64,000 bases of DNA from Minisyncoccota bacterium (GTDB lineage: Bacteria; Patescibacteriota; Minisyncoccia; Phycocordibacterales; UBA2100), in assembly GCA_043780835.1 (NCBI GenBank), contig JAYWCB010000005.1, positions 125,945-189,944 of the forward strand, in the 5' to 3' direction. Made by a program: the position numbers and the translations under genes. This document shows positions 3,016 through 23,797 of the stretch, piece after piece (the first letter of the stretch is position 1; the number at the start of each line of letters is the position of its first letter). The notes beneath the pieces were generated by a model. That model searched no databases. It was given only the letters and a program-made list of their open reading frames with translations, and had not been told where the DNA came from.

Positions 3016-3083
3016 AGATGTATCTTAGCTTTGGATTATAAGAACCAATGCCACGAGGGTGGCATTATTTCCTAATCATTCGA

Positions 3084-3980
3084 CTACTCCAGCTGATTAT
3101 TAATATCAACTGCCGCAATAGCGGCCTGGCCCATAGCTACACTTATCTGATTAAGTGCGTTCGTAACGTCTCCAACTGCATAGATGCGCGGGATAGAGGT
3201 GCGGCAATGGTCGTCAACGACAAGCGCACCCTTTGAATCAACGTCGGGTTTGAACTGCTCGACAAGGTCGGCGCGCACCTTTGCACCCAGAGCTGAATAA
3301 ATGGTGTCGAACTCGAGCTCTTGGCCCCGTGCTTCAAACGCACATATTTTGTCTCCGTTCATAACAACTTTCGTCACAGGGTCTTCTACAAAATGTATTC
3401 CTTCAGCAGTTAACACCTCGCGCTCCTCATTTAGAATATGCATCGGTTTGCCGAGTGACAATATGGTTAGGTCTTTTGCGTAGCGTTTTAACAGCAGGCT
3501 CTCCCGCAAATTCGCTTCGCCATAAAATATGACGCCAACTTTTTTATCGATTACCTCGAACCCGTCACAAATGACGCAATGACGGATCAGGCCGCGCGCA
3601 ATCGCTGCCTCGACATTAGGCAAATCCGGTTCGATATCGACGACACCAGTAGCCAGGATTACAGTTCGCGATTCGAATGTTCCTGCCCCAGTGGTTGCCA
3701 AGAATGTGCCATCGACACTCCGTATTAAATCTCTTACAGCATCCGTAATGATCTCAGCGCCGTATTTTTGCGCCTGCCGGCGCATCCGTTTGACGAGGTC
3801 GGGACCAGAAATGCCGTCGGGGAAACCTGCGTGGTTATGTGATGTGGGGATGAGCGATGCGCGACTCTTGCCGTTGTCGATAACGAGGAAGCTCCGACGG
3901 AAGCGCGCGAGATATATGGCCGCGGTCAATCCTCCTGGACCTCCGCCAATAATGAGAGAATCCAGAATTTTCCTTTGCAT
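3084..3980 (-). CDS. thioredoxin-reductase-like NAD(P)/FAD-dependent disulfide oxidoreductase
   Basis: [17 protein letters not shown] motif, redox CxxC (HCVICDG), GxGxxA NAD motif, C-terminal AVGDV. Confidence 0.7.
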
Positions 3981-4091: not shown

Positions 4092-5252
4092 TCATCCAAA
4101 TGTAAACGTATACGCTTGCAATCCGGGATTGTTTACGATTATCTCGATTGTATGTTCACCATAATCTATGCCTTCGACTAATTTGTAGAGCCGGTTTTCT
4201 TGAATCGTCATCGTGCCGTCCGCAGATACATCCGATCCTCTCCCAACCGTTATCGGTTTACCATCCAACATAACTGTGACGTTCACAGGTTTAGCGGCCG
4301 TACCAACGAGGTACACATTCTTCGATTTGTATTTATAGACAATTTTTGCACCTATGGACGTGTTTTCCGCATATTCATTTTGTAAGTTCCACGTGCCATC
4401 GAGGTACAACTCATTTGAGTGAATAGTGGTGTGCACCGTAAGCTTTTGCGTGCCCACAGTGCCCACAGTGCCCACAGTGCCTCGTGTGCCGTTTCCAAGG
4501 TACTCATTTCGAGAAGCGCCAAAATATGTTTCTGGACTTTGGACTCCGTTATTGCTAACCGTGATCACACCTGCGGGGTTCACTGTGCCGGTGGGCACCG
4601 TATCTGGAAGTCCGAGCACTTGGTCGCGCTCTTTCAATGCTGTCTGAATTTTTTGCTCGGTCTTATCATAATTACCCTCGCCAAAATGGGTATCAGCGAT
4701 ATAGCCGTCAATATCGATCAGGTATTCCGCTGGCCAATACTGGTTTTGGTACGCCTGCCATGTCGCCATTTCATTATCCTGCATAACTGGATACTTGATC
4801 CCATATTGGCCGTTGACGGCTTTGAGTACATTGTTGTAATCCTTCTCGAATTCAAATTCCGGCGAATGGACACCGACTATGACAAGACCCTGATCTTTGT
4901 ATTTCTCGTACCACGCGTTCACATACGGCGCGGAGCGTAAACAATTGATGCACGTATACGTCCAGAAGTCGATAAGTACTACTTTCTTGCCGATTAGATC
5001 TTTCAGTTTGAATGGCTCCGAATTTATGAATTTTCCACCAGGAATAAGTTCGACTGCCGGAGATAAAGTCGAAGCTTTTTGTTTGAGTATCACGGCTCTC
5101 TCTTGAGTTGTCGGTGTTGACGAAGATGTGGCAGTACGAGCGACAGGTGTACCAGCGACCGCAGGTGGCTTCGTTGACTCAATATACCAAATTGCGCCGG
5201 TGATGAATATGACTGCAATCATCAATAAAGTGTTTTTGTTCGACAAATTCAT
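4092..5252 (-). CDS. membrane-anchored TlpA/ResA-like thioredoxin-fold protein with DipZ-C-terminal-like beta domain
   Basis: N-terminal TM, Thr/Ser-rich linker, thioredoxin motif VVLIDFWTYTCINCLRSAPYV..VIVGVHSPEFEFEKD, ~170-aa C-terminal beta-rich domain; start overlaps upstream stop (ATGA). Confidence 0.7.
   Translation of the reverse strand: MNLSNKNTLLMIAVIFITGAIWYIESTKPPAVAGTPVARTATSSSTPTTQERAVILKQKASTLSPAVELIPGGKFINSEPFKLKDLIGKKVVLIDFWTYTCINCLRSAPYVNAWYEKYKDQGLVIVGVHSPEFEFEKDYNNVLKAVNGQYGIKYPVMQDNEMATWQAYQNQYWPAEYLIDIDGYIADTHFGEGNYDKTEQKIQTALKERDQVLGLPDTVPTGTVNPAGVITVSNNGVQSPETYFGASRNEYLGNGTRGTVGTVGTVGTQKLTVHTTIHSNELYLDGTWNLQNEYAENTSIGAKIVYKYKSKNVYLVGTAAKPVNVTVMLDGKPITVGRGSDVSADGTMTIQENRLYKLVEGIDYGEHTIEIIVNNPGLQAYTFTFG
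4450..4487. repeat. 9-bp tandem repeat (gcccacagt x3 plus a degenerate unit) encoding GTVGTVGTVGT inside the TlpA-like CDS
   Basis: Directly visible tandem periodicity in sequence and protein. Confidence 0.6.
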
Positions 5253-6049
5253 ACGTCTTGTTTTTTGATACTCGACTCCGCCAAGTATGAAAGGAATCCT
5301 GGAATGATTGGCAATACACAGGGGCTCAGGAATGATGCAAGGCCAGCGAAGAGAGCGACTGCAAGATTAACAATGCTCAGCGATGAAATACTTCCACCTG
5401 CGCTCGTGCCTAAATGGAGAGCGGTGAGAATGCTCGTCAGAAATTGTACATTTGCTACTTTACTCAACTCGCCGGTGAAGATAAAAATGCCTATGATAAT
5501 GAGTACTACGCCAAAAAAGTACTCGACATACGTGAGCCATGCTCCAGCGCGATTGATGAACTCCTGTGCCTGATTCGTAAATGCGCCGACGATCAAAAAC
5601 GGAATGCCGAGACCAAGAGTATATGCGAAGAGAAGCAGGAATGCGCTGCTGGGGTTTACTGCCGCGAGAGCTAAAATTGCTCCGAGTGCCGCGCTTACGC
5701 AGGGTGTCCATCCGACAGCAAATGCCGCGCCGAAAACAAACGCAGTAATGTACCGCGACTTAAACTTTCTTCGTATAAGAATTTTGTGATCGCGCTGAAG
5801 AAAGCGCGGCGTGAATAGTCCGAGAACGAAGAGTCCGAACAGGATGATGATAATGCCGCCGATCCTACCCAGCCACATCTGTACGTCGTGAGAGGAATGT
5901 ACCAGAACTGTCCGTAGCATCACTCCTACAAGCGAAAACACGACGGAAAATCCGAGCACAAAAAATACACTGGTGAAGAAAACGCCCCAGTCTCTTTTTT
6001 CATGTGCGAGGGCGAATTCGGGCTCCATATGTATGAAGTGTACTACCAA
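5249..6049 (-). CDS. CcdA/DsbD-core-like thiol-disulfide transporter with apparently circularly permuted helix order (TM2-TM6 then TM1)
   Basis: GWTPC motif (FAVGWTPCVSAALG) precedes SFLSPCVLPIIPGFLSY motif, which lies at the extreme C-terminus; N-terminus aligns with CcdA TM2; table start is TTG at 6049 with in-frame stop just upstream; ATG (MEPEF..) at ~6028 more likely. Confidence 0.6.
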   Translation of the reverse strand: MVVHFIHMEPEFALAHEKRDWGVFFTSVFFVLGFSVVFSLVGVMLRTVLVHSSHDVQMWLGRIGGIIIILFGLFVLGLFTPRFLQRDHKILIRRKFKSRYITAFVFGAAFAVGWTPCVSAALGAILALAAVNPSSAFLLLFAYTLGLGIPFLIVGAFTNQAQEFINRAGAWLTYVEYFFGVVLIIIGIFIFTGELSKVANVQFLTSILTALHLGTSAGGSISSLSIVNLAVALFAGLASFLSPCVLPIIPGFLSYLAESSIKKQDV

Positions 6050-6063
6050 ATTTTAGATAGGCT

Positions 6064-6495
6064 ATGTATACTACGATGCATATGAGGCTCGGAACGCATG
6101 CTCAGATCCTCGTGCTTTTCGTGCTCGCGGCACTCATCGTAATGAGTCTTTGCGGAACAGTTCTCAATGTGAGAATGGAAAAAGATGCACAAACATCAAC
6201 ATCTGGATGCATGTTCAGCGCCATTGCCATTTGCACGCTGTCCCCCCTGGCGCATTTTGCTGTGGGGCAGAGTATGTTCACCGGGACAGCTTTCGATGCA
6301 GTTCGTGCACTTGCTCTCCTGTTAGCTGCGGCAGTTTTTGCAGTATATATAACAAGGCGGTTACTGTTTGATGACGTTCTCAATTTTCTAGAGACACGTC
6401 AAAGATTGCGTTTTGAGCACTCGCTCGCGATTGTCCATATAAGTTCGTTCCAGGAAGCTTTTTCACGCGGCATTCTAAATCCGAAGGTTTATTAA
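6064..6495 (+). CDS. hypothetical Cys/His-containing membrane protein
   Basis: ORF divergent from ccdA-like gene; hydrophobic segments; no recognisable domain. Confidence 0.3.
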   Translation: MYTTMHMRLGTHAQILVLFVLAALIVMSLCGTVLNVRMEKDAQTSTSGCMFSAIAICTLSPLAHFAVGQSMFTGTAFDAVRALALLLAAAVFAVYITRRLLFDDVLNFLETRQRLRFEHSLAIVHISSFQEAFSRGILNPKVY

Positions 6496-6563
6496 TTTCT
6501 CTTAACGAAAGACCCTCAATGAAGTTGAGCGGTTTTCTATTTATAAGGTCAAGAGAAATTAAC

Positions 6564-7082
6564 ATGAAAACAAAATACATTATTGGCTTCATTGTTGGAG
6601 CGGCGGTACTGCCGTTGCTCGCAATTGTATTAATCCCCACTCCGAAGCCGCAGGCGGCGAGACCTCTGATGGGCGAGAAAATGACTGATCAGACTGCCAC
6701 ACACATCGAACGTGGGGCGGCACATGCGGCATACAACTCGGATCCGCCGACGTCAGGCGTACATTGGGGAGATGGCGTCGCGGGAGCTGGCATTAAGACT
6801 GAACAGGTCCCTGATGAACTTGTGCTACACAGTATGGAGCACGGTGCGGCAGTTATTTGGTACAAGGCAGACCTTGCAAAAGACGAGATTGCGAAAATTC
6901 AGGGCGCGTTCGATGCAGCAAAGATCGCGAAGAAAATCATGGTGCCCCGTACAAATCTCGACGTACCCGTCGCGCTCGTCTCGTGGGGCTACCTGCTGAA
7001 GCAGAAAACGTTAGATCCTGCACAAATCACTGCATTCTTATTGTCGAACAATGGACGCGGTACGGAAAACTCACCAATCTAG
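6564..7082 (+). CDS. DUF3105-like membrane-anchored protein
   Basis: N-terminal TM then HIERGAAHAAYNSDPPTSGVHW...LHSMEHGAAVIWY; internal Met of table ORF 6519..7082 taken as start. Confidence 0.45.
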   Translation: MKTKYIIGFIVGAAVLPLLAIVLIPTPKPQAARPLMGEKMTDQTATHIERGAAHAAYNSDPPTSGVHWGDGVAGAGIKTEQVPDELVLHSMEHGAAVIWYKADLAKDEIAKIQGAFDAAKIAKKIMVPRTNLDVPVALVSWGYLLKQKTLDPAQITAFLLSNNGRGTENSPI

Positions 7083-7128: not shown

Positions 7129-7848
7129 ATGGAGACTGAATCGCAACAAAATAAATTACTCATTCCTGGCGCGATAGTCATTGCTGGATTTTTAATCGCT
7201 GGAGGACTTCTCATTGGACTTCGTGGAAACAGTTCGGCGCAAGTCGGTGCGACGCCTCCAACCGGCCAACAACCAACACAGGCGGCGGATGTTAGCAAGG
7301 TCAAGATCGCTGGTGAACCATATATTGGAAAGGAGGACGCTCCAGTCACGATGGCGTACTGGTTCGATTACCAGTGTCCGTTCTGTCAGCGCAACGAGAT
7401 TGATGTCATGCCGCAGCTCGTTAAAGAATACGTGGACACCGGCAAGGTTAAGATTGTATTCAAAGATTTCGAATTTTTAAGCGAGGATTCGCAACGACTT
7501 GGCAAAGTAGCGCGTGCTGTCTGGGATACTGCTCCGGATAAATTCTATCAATGGCACAAGGCTGTCTTTGAGAATCAGGGTAAGGAAAATACAGGCTGGG
7601 CAACAGACGCGAAGATCCTCTCAATTACGACGAGCGTACTTGGCGCAGCAGATGCGCAAAAAGTAATGGCACTGGCGATTAAGAATTCAGATGCGTATCA
7701 AAAAGAGATGGACGATGACAAAGCCGAAGGAGGGGCAATGGGCGTAAGCGGTACGCCAGGCACGATCATTGGTAAACAGTTTATCAATGGAGCTCAGCCA
7801 TACGCAGCATTTAAGCAAGTCATTGATCTTACCCTTGCGGGAAAGTGA
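7129..7848 (+). CDS. DsbA/BdbD-like thiol:disulfide oxidoreductase, membrane anchored
   Basis: N-terminal TM; thioredoxin-fold active site YWFDYQCPFCQRNE (CPFC); C-terminal GVSGTPGTIIG. Confidence 0.7.
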   Translation: METESQQNKLLIPGAIVIAGFLIAGGLLIGLRGNSSAQVGATPPTGQQPTQAADVSKVKIAGEPYIGKEDAPVTMAYWFDYQCPFCQRNEIDVMPQLVKEYVDTGKVKIVFKDFEFLSEDSQRLGKVARAVWDTAPDKFYQWHKAVFENQGKENTGWATDAKILSITTSVLGAADAQKVMALAIKNSDAYQKEMDDDKAEGGAMGVSGTPGTIIGKQFINGAQPYAAFKQVIDLTLAGK

Positions 7849-8384
7849 TTATGATTGCGAGCGCGTTCACGACAGTATTCAAAAAGTGGCAGTATGTGTT
7901 ACTTGCCGCTGCTGTGGCGCTGTTTATGACTGTGTTTGCAACATGGCTGCCGAATCTGCGACTCCTATTGTCGATTCTTGGAAATCCCGCAGTAGCTCTC
8001 GCCGACAAATTAACTTTGCCGGTTAATCTTGCCACGTCGATCACGACAAACTTCACGGTCCGTGCCGCTCTCTACATCATTGCGAGCGCCGTGCTCGCTG
8101 GTATCAATGTCTCGCTCATTACGTACTACATTAATAGACAGAGACGTGTATCAGGAGCTGGCGCGGCAGCGGGTGGGCTCGGACTCATAAGTGGAGTCCT
8201 TGGAGTCGGATGCGCTGCATGTGGCTCGCTGGTAGTCATGTCCGTATTCGGCACAGCGGCGGGTGCAAGCATCATCACCTTTTTACCGCTCAAAGGTGAA
8301 GAATTCGGAATCGCTGGAGTAACGCTGCTTGGTATTTCGGCGTACATTTCGGCGAAACAAATAACGAAGCCCCTTGTGTGCTAG
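7845..8384 (+). CDS. polytopic membrane protein with intramembrane CAAC motif, translationally coupled to dsbA-like gene
   Basis: ATGA overlap with upstream stop; ~5 TM; GVLGVGCAACGSLVVM; no DsbB/VKOR signatures. Confidence 0.5.
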   Translation: MIMIASAFTTVFKKWQYVLLAAAVALFMTVFATWLPNLRLLLSILGNPAVALADKLTLPVNLATSITTNFTVRAALYIIASAVLAGINVSLITYYINRQRRVSGAGAAAGGLGLISGVLGVGCAACGSLVVMSVFGTAAGASIITFLPLKGEEFGIAGVTLLGISAYISAKQITKPLVC

Positions 8385-11797: not shown

Positions 11798-13930
11798 ATG
11801 GATCACTCACATCACAACCATGGCGAGCATCATACAGATTCGACTGGAGAATCGTATAGCTGCCCCATGCACCCGGGAGTTGTGCAAGACAAACCAGGTA
11901 TGTGCCCCGAGTGCGGCATGAATCTTGTGCCTATAAAAAAGAAGTCGGCTGCGGAAATGAGTGAAATTAAGCACGTTGGTCACAACACCTTTTCATTTTT
12001 GCAGAAGTTCTGGATTTCACTTGCGCTCACCATACCCATCTTCTTTTACTCAGAAATGGCGCTATCGGTCTTTGGAATTCACGGACCTGAGTTCCCCGGA
12101 TGGCAGTACGTACTACTCTTGCTCGGATCAGCTGTATTTTTTTACTGTGGATGGATCTTTCTTAGTAGTGCATACCGTGAGCTTCGGGCACGGATGCCGG
12201 GAATGATGACGCTGATCGCACTTGCGATCATTGCGGCATATCTGTATAGCTTCTTCTCTATCATCCTTGGAACGGGTCACGATTTGCTTTTTGAACTCTC
12301 AACACTGATAGCCATTATGCTTCTTGGCCACTGGATCGAGATGCGCTCGGTGCAAGGTGCCAAAGGAGCTCTTAAAGAACTAGCTAAACTTCTCCCCGAT
12401 ACCGCAGACGTAATCCGCAACGGTAAAACCGAAACTGTCTCACTGAGCGACCTGCGTGCAGGCGATAAAGTGCTCGTTAAACCGGGTGCAAAAATTCCGG
12501 CTGACGGACGAATTGTTGAAGGACAGTCAGAAATAAACGAGGCAATTATCACCGGAGAATCGAAACCTGTTTCTAGAACGACGGGAGCACAAGTTATAGC
12601 TGGCTCTATTAATGGAGACGGAAGCCTCACGGTTGAAGTAACACATATTGGCGACAAGACTTTTCTGGCAGGAATCATGCGACTTGTCGCTGATGCCGAA
12701 GCGTCTAAATCCAAATTGCAGATGCTCTCGGATCGAGCAGCGTTTTATCTCACCATTATTGCGATTGTCGCAGGAGTCACAACATTTATTGCATGGCTCT
12801 TGGCAAACGCAGGCGTAGGAACTGCTACAGAGCGTCTTGTCGCTGTTCTCGTCATTACGTGTCCTCACGCCCTGGGTCTAGCAATTCCGCTCGTTGCGTC
12901 GATCTCTACGACCATGGCTGCACGAAATGGACTCTTAGTGCGCCGCCGCATGGCTCTGGAAGAAGCCCGAAATATTAATACGGTTTTATTTGATAAGACA
13001 GGCACCCTGACTAAGGGAGAATTTGGCATAGACGCGATTGTTGCAAACGAAGGTGTTACGGAGGAGCAAGTCCTCAAAACGGCCGCCTCAGTCAATAGTC
13101 AATCAGAACATCCATTGGCTAGTGCAATGGTCAAAGAGGCGCAAAAAAGAAACATCGCTTTGATTGGTATAAAAGACTTTGCACGTATTGGAGGCCGCGG
13201 CGCAAAGGCGCAGATGGAAAATAGCGAAGTGTATGTTGGCAACGAATCTTTTCTTGCAGAAAATAATATACAAGTACCATCAGAGTATCAAAACAAAATA
13301 GATATCCTCTCAAAACAAGGAAAAACGGTGATATTTGTTGTCGTTGATAAAAAACTCATCGGTAGCATCGCGCTTGCCGACGTTATTCGAGAAGAGTCAC
13401 GAGAAGCAATTAAAACCCTTAAGGCTCTTGGTATTCGTACCGCTATGGTTACGGGCGATTCCGAAGATGTTGCCGCGTGGGTAGCCAAGGAAATAGGTAT
13501 TGATGAATATTTTGCAAAAGTCATGCCTGACCAAAAGGCAGAAAAAGTAAAACTTCTGCAAAGCAAAGGCCAAAAAGTAGCTATGGTCGGCGACGGGGTG
13601 AATGATGCGCCCGCGCTTACGCAAGCAGACCTTGGTATAGCAATCGGTGCAGGTACAAATGTTGCGATTGAGTCAGCGGGAATTATCCTCGTAAAAAGTG
13701 ATCCTCGCGATATCACGAAAATCTTTAACCTATCGCGCCTTACCTACAACAAGATGATCCAAAATCTTTTCTGGGCTACAGGCTACAACGTCGTGGCGAT
13801 TCCCTTGGCTGCCGGAACGCTCGCGTCGTACGGAATCATTCTGCAACCCGCACTTGCTGCCGTGTTTATGTCAGTAAGTACCGTGATAGTTGCATTCAAC
13901 GCAGTGCTATTGAGACGACAAAAAATCTAG
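11798..13930 (+). CDS. copB: copper-translocating P1B-type ATPase, CPH (CopB/P1B-3-like) subtype with His-rich and CxxC N-terminus
   Basis: N-terminus MDHSHHNHGEHH + YSCPMHPGV..CPECGM; TM CPH motif (ITCPHALGLA); DKTGTLT, TGD, GDGVNDAP motifs. Confidence 0.85.
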   Translation: MDHSHHNHGEHHTDSTGESYSCPMHPGVVQDKPGMCPECGMNLVPIKKKSAAEMSEIKHVGHNTFSFLQKFWISLALTIPIFFYSEMALSVFGIHGPEFPGWQYVLLLLGSAVFFYCGWIFLSSAYRELRARMPGMMTLIALAIIAAYLYSFFSIILGTGHDLLFELSTLIAIMLLGHWIEMRSVQGAKGALKELAKLLPDTADVIRNGKTETVSLSDLRAGDKVLVKPGAKIPADGRIVEGQSEINEAIITGESKPVSRTTGAQVIAGSINGDGSLTVEVTHIGDKTFLAGIMRLVADAEASKSKLQMLSDRAAFYLTIIAIVAGVTTFIAWLLANAGVGTATERLVAVLVITCPHALGLAIPLVASISTTMAARNGLLVRRRMALEEARNINTVLFDKTGTLTKGEFGIDAIVANEGVTEEQVLKTAASVNSQSEHPLASAMVKEAQKRNIALIGIKDFARIGGRGAKAQMENSEVYVGNESFLAENNIQVPSEYQNKIDILSKQGKTVIFVVVDKKLIGSIALADVIREESREAIKTLKALGIRTAMVTGDSEDVAAWVAKEIGIDEYFAKVMPDQKAEKVKLLQSKGQKVAMVGDGVNDAPALTQADLGIAIGAGTNVAIESAGIILVKSDPRDITKIFNLSRLTYNKMIQNLFWATGYNVVAIPLAAGTLASYGIILQPALAAVFMSVSTVIVAFNAVLLRRQKI

Positions 13931-23454: not shown

Positions 23455-23645
23455 TAGTATACGCTCAACGTTTGGTTTCCATGGCTCTTATTCTAGTATA
23501 TTTGCCTGTTGGTAAGTCCCTTCGCAAAACCCTGAAATCTGCTAGGGTGCAAATTGATAGCCTAAAGTGCTATCATGTTCTTGCAGACAATTAAATAAAA
23601 GCCGACCTAACCCCTTTGGAATTTCCAGAGGATATGGTTGCAAAC

Positions 23646-23797
23646 CCCGCTAGAGATCAAAGGACTCCTCGTCAGAGTCACTCTAGCGGGTTATATCGGG
23701 AAACCGGTATAGGTGGGAGCCGAAAGGTTCTCATCGCGATGGCGAGGGGCCTTTTGATTACCTGAAGGTTCCCACCACTAAAATCCCGCTAGATTTT
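23646..23797 (+). promoter_or_regulatory. structured 5' leader with mutually exclusive helices (possible cis-regulatory RNA) upstream of 23798 gene
   Basis: CCCGCTAGAG (23646-55) and CCCGCTAGA (23785-93, followed by TTTT and the ATG) can both pair with CTCTAGCGGG (23681-90); internal GAAA-tetraloop hairpin and GGTGGGA..GGTTCCCACC helix. Confidence 0.3.

Follow-up and report, generated by a model that had tools for sequence, protein, structure and literature searches.

A naturally circularly permuted CcdA-type protein in which the first transmembrane helix stands last

A locus of a Minisyncoccota bacterium raises the question of whether a membrane protein of the CcdA/DsbD core family can carry its transmembrane (TM) helices in a circularly permuted order, and, if so, how such a form came about and what it does. 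The locus lies in a stretch of 64,000 nucleotides (assembly GCA_043780835.1, contig JAYWCB010000005.1, positions 125,945 to 189,944 of the forward strand), which is referred to here as the window. Canonical CcdA (5VKV; Pfam PF02683) has six helices in the order TM1 to TM6, with its cysteines in an SPCxLP motif in TM1 and a GWTPC motif in TM4, and extracytoplasmic termini. The original prediction, made from the letters of the DNA, was that the gene at 5249..6049 on the (-) strand begins at the equivalent of TM2 and ends with TM1, as a natural circular permutant would. As set out below, this gene encodes a CcdA/DsbD-core protein with the helix order TM2-TM3-TM4-TM5-TM6-linker-TM1.

The open reading frame (ORF) as called mechanically, 5249..6049 (-), gives 266 amino acids (aa) when read from a TTG codon. 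The in-frame stop that had been said to lie directly upstream of this TTG does exist, but it is two codons away, and the TTG itself is probably not the start. Because the methionine encoded at 6028 is where the chain starts in all close homologues and in the database protein P0001, which is 100% identical to the window CcdA over its full 259 aa, that ATG is the most likely start, which gives a gene of 5249..6028 (-) and a protein of 259 aa, the numbering used from here on. In this numbering the GWTPC motif, which had been placed near residue 105, was read from the DNA at residues 106-110 (5699..5713 (-), catalytic Cys110), and SPCVLP at residues 235-240 (5309..5326 (-), catalytic Cys237), within the last hydrophobic helix, which is followed by nine residues and the stop. 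The DNA of TM1 is in frame and contiguous with that of TM6. The stop also overlaps the start of the next gene, as had been noted, TGA at 5249-5251 and ATG at 5250-5252 forming an ATGA at 5249..5252 (-).

Evidence for the order of the helices came from comparisons with known CcdA sequences. The Pfam profile DsbD_TM (PF02683) matched the protein with 78.6 bits, against a cut-off of 27.1, in two stretches that were out of order; the best stretch aligned residues 24-191 to positions 45-215 of the 219 in the profile, the first fifth of which was absent. A phmmer comparison with Thermus thermophilus CcdA (5vkv_A) behaved in the same way, giving 123.6 bits in total, with query residues 17-195 matching chain residues 40-209 (TM2-TM6) at 107 bits and query residues 221-250 matching chain residues 4-33 (TM1) at 22.5 bits. 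When residues 212-259 were put first in silico, the un-permuted sequence gave a single collinear DsbD_TM match (10-233 against profile 3-215 of 219), whereas a collinear profile alignment of the native protein was sought and not found. Conversely, the native protein aligned collinearly across the junction of C-terminus and N-terminus of a doubled canonical homologue, which is the signature of a circular permutant.

TM1 and TM4 belong to homologous inverted repeats and both contain a P-C motif, and the C-terminal cysteine helix might thus be a duplicated or convergent TM4-like helix on an N-terminally truncated CcdA. However, against hidden Markov models (HMMs) built from canonical relatives the last helix scored 62.4 bits for TM1 and -0.8 bits for TM4, indicating that it is the relocated TM1 and no copy of TM4; its identity to the TM1 of P0121 is 59%, and the alignment to a doubled canonical protein is collinear through the flanks as well. 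An origin from TM4 is therefore extremely unlikely.

The permuted order is conserved. In all of the 120 closest proteins, which are 244-291 aa long and share 66-100% identity, WxPC lies at about residue 105 and PCxxP at about residue 235. Genomes were scanned with family-specific patterns, one genome per species, and the best 80 loci from 414 matching genomes were analysed; every one of the 80 matched to residue 251 or beyond, the relocated TM1 included. These best 80 loci are labelled Patescibacteria (Kaiser-, Nomura-, Taylor-, Lipton- and Sungbacteria, Paceibacterota), also known as the candidate phyla radiation (CPR), or DPANN archaea (Woese-, Nano- and Micrarchaeota), and one of them lies on a 1.84-Mb Woesearchaeota chromosome. 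Cys110 and Cys237 were invariant in the 120 homologues and in 14 divergent permuted sequences. W107, P109 and C110 were invariant in every permuted alignment, the invariance of G106 and T108 being confined to the window family of 120; in the second motif S235, P236, C237, L239 and P240 were all invariant in that family, and the same residues except P240 across all permuted lineages.

Since the window comes from a metagenome-type assembly, we also considered whether an assembly error, a frameshift or faulty gene calling could have produced the order by displacing the TM1 of a gene that is in truth canonical. None of the three upstream frames on the gene's strand encodes a C-x-x-L-P helix or TM1, in agreement with the original prediction, and the whole 64-kb window contains no second ccdA. 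A tblastn search with the canonical protein P0125 did run weakly into 6029..6097, where AFRASYAS*YT*PI*NLV was aligned with AFLAGLASFLSPCVLPLVP. This candidate for a TM1 relic was judged to be a chance match because it holds three stops, lies inside the divergent ORF 6064..6495 (+), which follows the ATG at 6028 after a 35-bp intergenic gap, and was absent when P0121 was the query. The identical protein, with the same neighbours in the same order, was also present in a Logan assembly made independently from a sequencing run, and the permuted order recurs in 120/120 proteins and 80/80 loci from many independent projects, the archaeal chromosome among them. Together with the unbroken reading frame from TM6 into TM1, these findings make an artefact vanishingly improbable.

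Alignment to a doubled copy of P0329, the closest canonical relative, allowed each segment of the permuted protein to be assigned to its canonical counterpart. The N-terminal tail (residues 1-14; 5987..6028 (-)), predicted to be cytoplasmic, corresponds to the distal stretch of the loop between TM1 and TM2 in canonical CcdA. The TM2-TM6 core (residues 15-186; 5471..5986 (-)), delimited by the 107-bit match to 5vkv_A, the Pfam match and the helices of an AlphaFold2 model, is collinear with canonical CcdA residues ~40-209. The linker between TM6 and TM1 (residues 187-221; 5366..5470 (-)), delimited by the doubled alignment and the model and predicted to be extracytoplasmic, joins the old C-terminal tail helix to the old N-terminal tail through some 12 inserted residues. 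The relocated TM1 (residues 222-250; 5279..5365 (-)), recognised by both the TM1 HMM and 5vkv_A, is now the last helix, and the short tail ESSIKKQDV behind it (residues 251-259; 5252..5278 (-)), again predicted to be cytoplasmic, corresponds to the proximal stretch of that canonical loop between TM1 and TM2.

The topology was derived from the positive-inside rule, using the mean number of lysines and arginines (K+R) per sequence over 120 sequences. The segments predicted to be inside carried 2.5 (N-tail), 5.6 (loop 3-4), 2.3 (loop 5-6) and 1.8 (C-tail), and those predicted to be outside 0.2 (loop 2-3), 0.0 (loop 4-5) and 0.9 (TM6-TM1 linker), so that totals of 12.2 inside and 1.2 outside bore out the alternating topology that had been proposed. 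Both termini of the window CcdA are thus predicted to be inside and the linker outside. In the canonical relatives the charges were distributed in the complementary way, placing loop 1-2 inside and the two tails outside. Therefore each helix would keep its orientation, and only the connectivity of the chain differs. The AlphaFold2 model of the window protein (predicted local distance difference test 73, predicted template modelling score 0.67) contained the expected helices, with TM1 broken at the SPCVLPII segment as it was in a control model of canonical P0347, and the linker modelled as a helix (195-209) followed by a low-confidence coil (210-216). A Foldseek search of the PDB with this medium-confidence model returned nothing below an E-value of 0.7 and did not recover 5VKV, probably because it was hampered by a target determined by nuclear magnetic resonance.

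With a profile match above the cut-off, two cysteine motifs, six alternating helices and a gene for a thioredoxin-like protein next to it, the window protein has the traits of CcdA except for the collinear TM1-TM6 order with extracytoplasmic termini. None of the NCBIfam models reached its cut-off (DsbD NF001419 59 against 330 bits, TsoB 53 against 805, ArsG 43 against 200). The neighbouring gene, 4092..5252 (-), encodes a partner with an N-terminal membrane anchor, a TlpA/ResA-like thioredoxin domain with the motif CINC and a C-terminal Thioredoxin_10 domain (PF17991, 115.9 bits, with further Pfam matches to Thioredoxin_8, Redoxin and AhpC-TSA), and the ATGA overlap suggests that the two genes are translationally coupled. 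Directly downstream of ccdA, 73 of the 80 best loci carry a homologue of the partner gene on the same strand; in at least four of the seven loci without it the contig ends just past ccdA. Two permuted ccdA paralogues occur in one Liptonbacteria metagenome-assembled genome (JACQBP01; loci L016 and L064), both with a TlpA/Thioredoxin_10 gene of their own behind them. Downstream of the partner in the window lies a gene for a thioredoxin-reductase-like flavoprotein (3084..3980 (-); Pfam Pyr_redox_2, motif CVIC), which probably closes the transcription unit; a terminator-like hairpin, found by a consensus scan only, follows the three genes at 3046..3067 (-).

Some database records of these proteins carry the NCBI name 'sulfite exporter TauE/SafE family protein', which would fit loss of the reductant-transfer role and a different function, such as that of an exporter. 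The classical client of CcdA would also be missing, as most CPR and DPANN organisms are not known to have c-type cytochromes. Yet the window protein had no Pfam match to TauE/SafE even at E-values of up to 1, the catalytic cysteines and their motifs are invariant across the permuted lineages, and the thioredoxin-like partner is conserved, apparently translationally coupled, and found in a like operon with a canonical relative. A change of function is thus very unlikely.

The canonical relative in question is P0347, which shares 61-67% identity with most of the window family. Its operon (L082 3322..5832) has the order Redoxin, CcdA, TlpA/Thioredoxin_10, with the last two genes overlapping by 16 nt, and can serve directly as the canonical counterpart to the operon in the window. 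The origin of the permuted form was approached through a search of 1.84 billion cluster representatives for relatives, in which helix order was classed with the TM1 and core HMMs; motif regular expressions were dropped for this purpose, being ambiguous in that TM4 too has a TPCxxP-like string. The best 150 relatives comprised 19 permuted, 111 canonical and 20 fragmentary architectures, and the other permuted lineages included proteins labelled Dehalococcoidia and 'archaeon'. In one distant permuted lineage (the P0232 group) the protein is fused to an N-terminal heavy-metal-associated (HMA) domain (P0342); the group also adjoins a gene for a PCYCGC-domain protein and a two-component system (L083 4001..4795, P0297). 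This hints at a metal- or copper-related role for the P0232 group instead of the TlpA/Thioredoxin_10 pathway.

Origins were judged by pairwise identities, doubled alignments and quartets; whole-family neighbour-joining (NJ) trees, one of them midpoint-rooted, were set aside for this purpose because of the weak support for their deep nodes. Once the sequences had been re-ordered, the window protein shared 60% identity with canonical P0329 but only 36-40% with the other permuted lineages; the permuted proteins P0159 and P0174 likewise have canonical relatives at 65% (P0368) and 64% (P0358) identity, respectively. Each permuted protein aligned in one piece to its own doubled canonical relative across the C-terminus-to-N-terminus junction. 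For P0159 and P0368 the gap at the junction is a single residue, the new termini abutting inside the old TM1-TM2 loop, and P0001 has a 12-residue insertion at its junction relative to doubled P0329. In quartets (three comparisons among the three pairs), the permuted proteins grouped with their own canonical relatives in 1000/1000 bootstraps. Since the permuted lineages each align collinearly to a doubled canonical relative, the data fit a tandem duplication, in-frame fusion and trimming that would have occurred more than once or been accompanied by reversion, and the permutation seems to have arisen more than once. Two strong TM1 matches were present in none of the 388 proteins examined. One protein, P0188 (195 aa), had two core-HMM matches; it proved to be no duplication, its single core having been split in two.

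Taken together, the gene very probably encodes a functional CcdA-type thiol-disulfide electron transporter whose chain is circularly permuted and derived from a canonical ccdA by duplication, fusion and trimming. Several observations weigh against parts of this explanation. The canonical member of each quartet was picked as the nearest, which biases the test; P0159, P0368 and P0358 are singletons on short metagenome contigs; the deep nodes of the distance tree had a support of 0-0.3 (NJ, 200 bootstraps); and no tandem-fused or 7-TM intermediate turned up among the proteins examined, nor any tandem CcdA-CcdA fusion among the best 120 matches of a doubled canonical query searched against 5.8 billion proteins. 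As for the electron path, adjacency of the thioredoxin reductase gene is not kept in related loci, being seen only in L001, and a search of the 64-kb window for a thioredoxin gene found none.

The weak deep nodes mean that the tree alone would allow the permuted CcdAs to form a single clade, descended from one ancient permutation, with their likeness to canonical proteins due to uneven rates; the use of the TM1-TM2 loop as the breakpoint in all permuted lineages and the missing intermediates also agree with a single origin. On the other hand, permuted proteins are 60-65% identical to particular canonical ones and 36-40% among themselves, the three best pairs grouped by lineage in every quartet bootstrap, and the linkers, unrelated across lineages, each resemble the terminal segments of the canonical relative of that lineage. 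A single origin would still call for reversions to the canonical order. A single ancient permutation is accordingly improbable, and we favour repeated duplication, fusion and trimming.

How the permuted protein may work can be outlined from its parts. The chain would start in the cytoplasm at what is usually the TM1-TM2 loop, pass through TM2-TM6, continue into a 35-residue linker on the outer face (the old C-tail plus the old N-tail) and end with TM1 and a short cytoplasmic tail. Because the orientations of the helices are kept and Cys110 and Cys237 are invariant, the fold and chemistry of CcdA are to be expected. A thioredoxin reductase would keep a cytoplasmic thioredoxin reduced, and this would reduce the Cys110-Cys237 disulfide; the reduced pair, exposed to the outside, would then reduce the CINC motif of the membrane-anchored TlpA/Thioredoxin_10 partner, which in turn may reduce or isomerise extracytoplasmic proteins. 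In evolutionary terms, a canonical ccdA would have undergone tandem duplication, in-frame fusion and trimming at both ends to give the permuted form, the window family becoming common to Patescibacteria and DPANN while other CcdA lineages were permuted independently, or reverted. The permuted order and its conservation, the operon, the topology signal and the pairing of lineages with canonical relatives are observed here; we infer the redox activity, the electron path and the mechanism of duplication, the function as an electron transporter being assigned by homology.

The permutation may also be more than a neutral rearrangement. With TM2, an ordinary N-in signal-anchor helix, at the start of the chain, and the broken, mobile catalytic helix TM1 inserted last and held from the outer face rather than the inner one, a change in biogenesis or in the elevator movement could have been selected repeatedly, an idea that we put forward tentatively and consider doubtful. 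If true, selection would account for the several origins of the form with TM1 last and for its having become the usual CcdA of CPR and DPANN. In a more extreme version of this idea, TM1 would reach a neighbouring protomer by means of the long linker and insert there, giving a domain-swapped dimer.

Comparison with known systems places the protein closest to canonical CcdA, with which it shares the six helices and their orientations, the two cysteine motifs, 60% identity to P0329 once re-ordered and the operon type seen with P0347. It differs in the order of the helices, TM1 being made last, and in its termini, which are both predicted to be cytoplasmic instead of extracytoplasmic. In canonical CcdA, TM1 and TM4 have been proposed to move as an elevator in an O-shaped scaffold (PMC7329351). 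TM1 of the window protein is tethered to TM6 by a linker on the outer face, whereas a cytoplasmic loop connects that of canonical CcdA to TM2; TM1 is terminal, with one end free, in the permuted and the canonical chain alike.

In DipZ of Mycobacterium tuberculosis, a canonical CcdA is joined in one chain to a thioredoxin and a Thioredoxin_10 domain, the same three modules as in the window gene pair. Fused proteins of this kind, 562-577 aa long, rank among the nearest canonical relatives (P0126, P0396, P0406 and P0417); for P0396, P0406 and P0417 precomputed Pfam annotation lists DsbD_TM, Redoxin and Thioredoxin_10. In the window, by contrast, the thioredoxin/Thioredoxin_10 module is separate and has its own membrane anchor; because the permuted C-terminus is predicted to be inside, a direct C-terminal fusion would put the module in the cytoplasm. 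The beta domain of DsbD and ScsB share the catalytic core, the DsbD model falling short of its cut-off as given above, but have 8 TM helices, whereas the window protein has six, permuted, and lacks the periplasmic alpha and gamma domains. As a permuted membrane thiol oxidoreductase, the protein has its nearest precedent in the relationship between VKOR and DsbB, for which a circular permutation by gene duplication and deletion has been proposed (PMC4555120). That case is ancient and inferred from structure (PMC4555120), between different families and in an oxidative pathway, whereas the present one belongs to a reductive pathway, with forms that are 60-65% identical and junctions that can still be read. 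No published report of a permuted CcdA or DsbD was found in the literature, most subscription journals lying outside the coverage of the search.

The surroundings of the operon add a further set of observations. On the opposite strand its neighbours encode a DUF3105 protein, a DsbA-like protein and an uncharacterised membrane protein. The DUF3105 gene (6519..7082 (+)) sits between the ccdA and dsbA genes, and the DsbA-like gene (7129..7848 (+)) overlaps by 4 nt an ORF for a membrane protein of 179 aa (7845..8384 (+)), which has a CxxC motif (GCAACG) in a glycine- and alanine-rich hydrophobic stretch and a C-terminal cysteine. This ORF had no Pfam family and no sequence match in the PDB; it could encode a partner that re-oxidises DsbA and is unrelated to DsbB or VKOR. 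About 6 kb away, a heavy-metal P-type ATPase (11798..13930 (+)) has an E1-E2 ATPase domain with an HMBD domain, and the ccdA region as a whole looks like a cluster for envelope redox and metal homeostasis. Further along the window, the Rfam LOOT RNA motif (RF03000) matched 23604..23732 (+) with 73 bits against a gathering score of 46.4.

While natural circular permutation has been documented well in soluble proteins, reports of it in polytopic alpha-helical membrane proteins are rare. The permuted and canonical forms described here, with 60-65% identity, like operons and readable junctions, make up matched natural pairs that bear on the order of helix insertion and folding, and on the side from which TM1, the proposed elevator helix, is tethered. 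They also provide a concrete, repeated example of the route through duplication, fusion and trimming, and with it an evolutionary model that can be tested. For the family, the permutation accounts for the inconsistent names given by annotation pipelines, which call these proteins CcdA or TauE/SafE. For the organisms, the window-family CcdA and its partner gene are common to CPR and DPANN at 56-69% identity (L017, L026, L043-L049, L053, L056, L062 and others), which suggests that the pair has been transferred between the two domains, and a reductive envelope pathway of this kind would be widespread in both groups.

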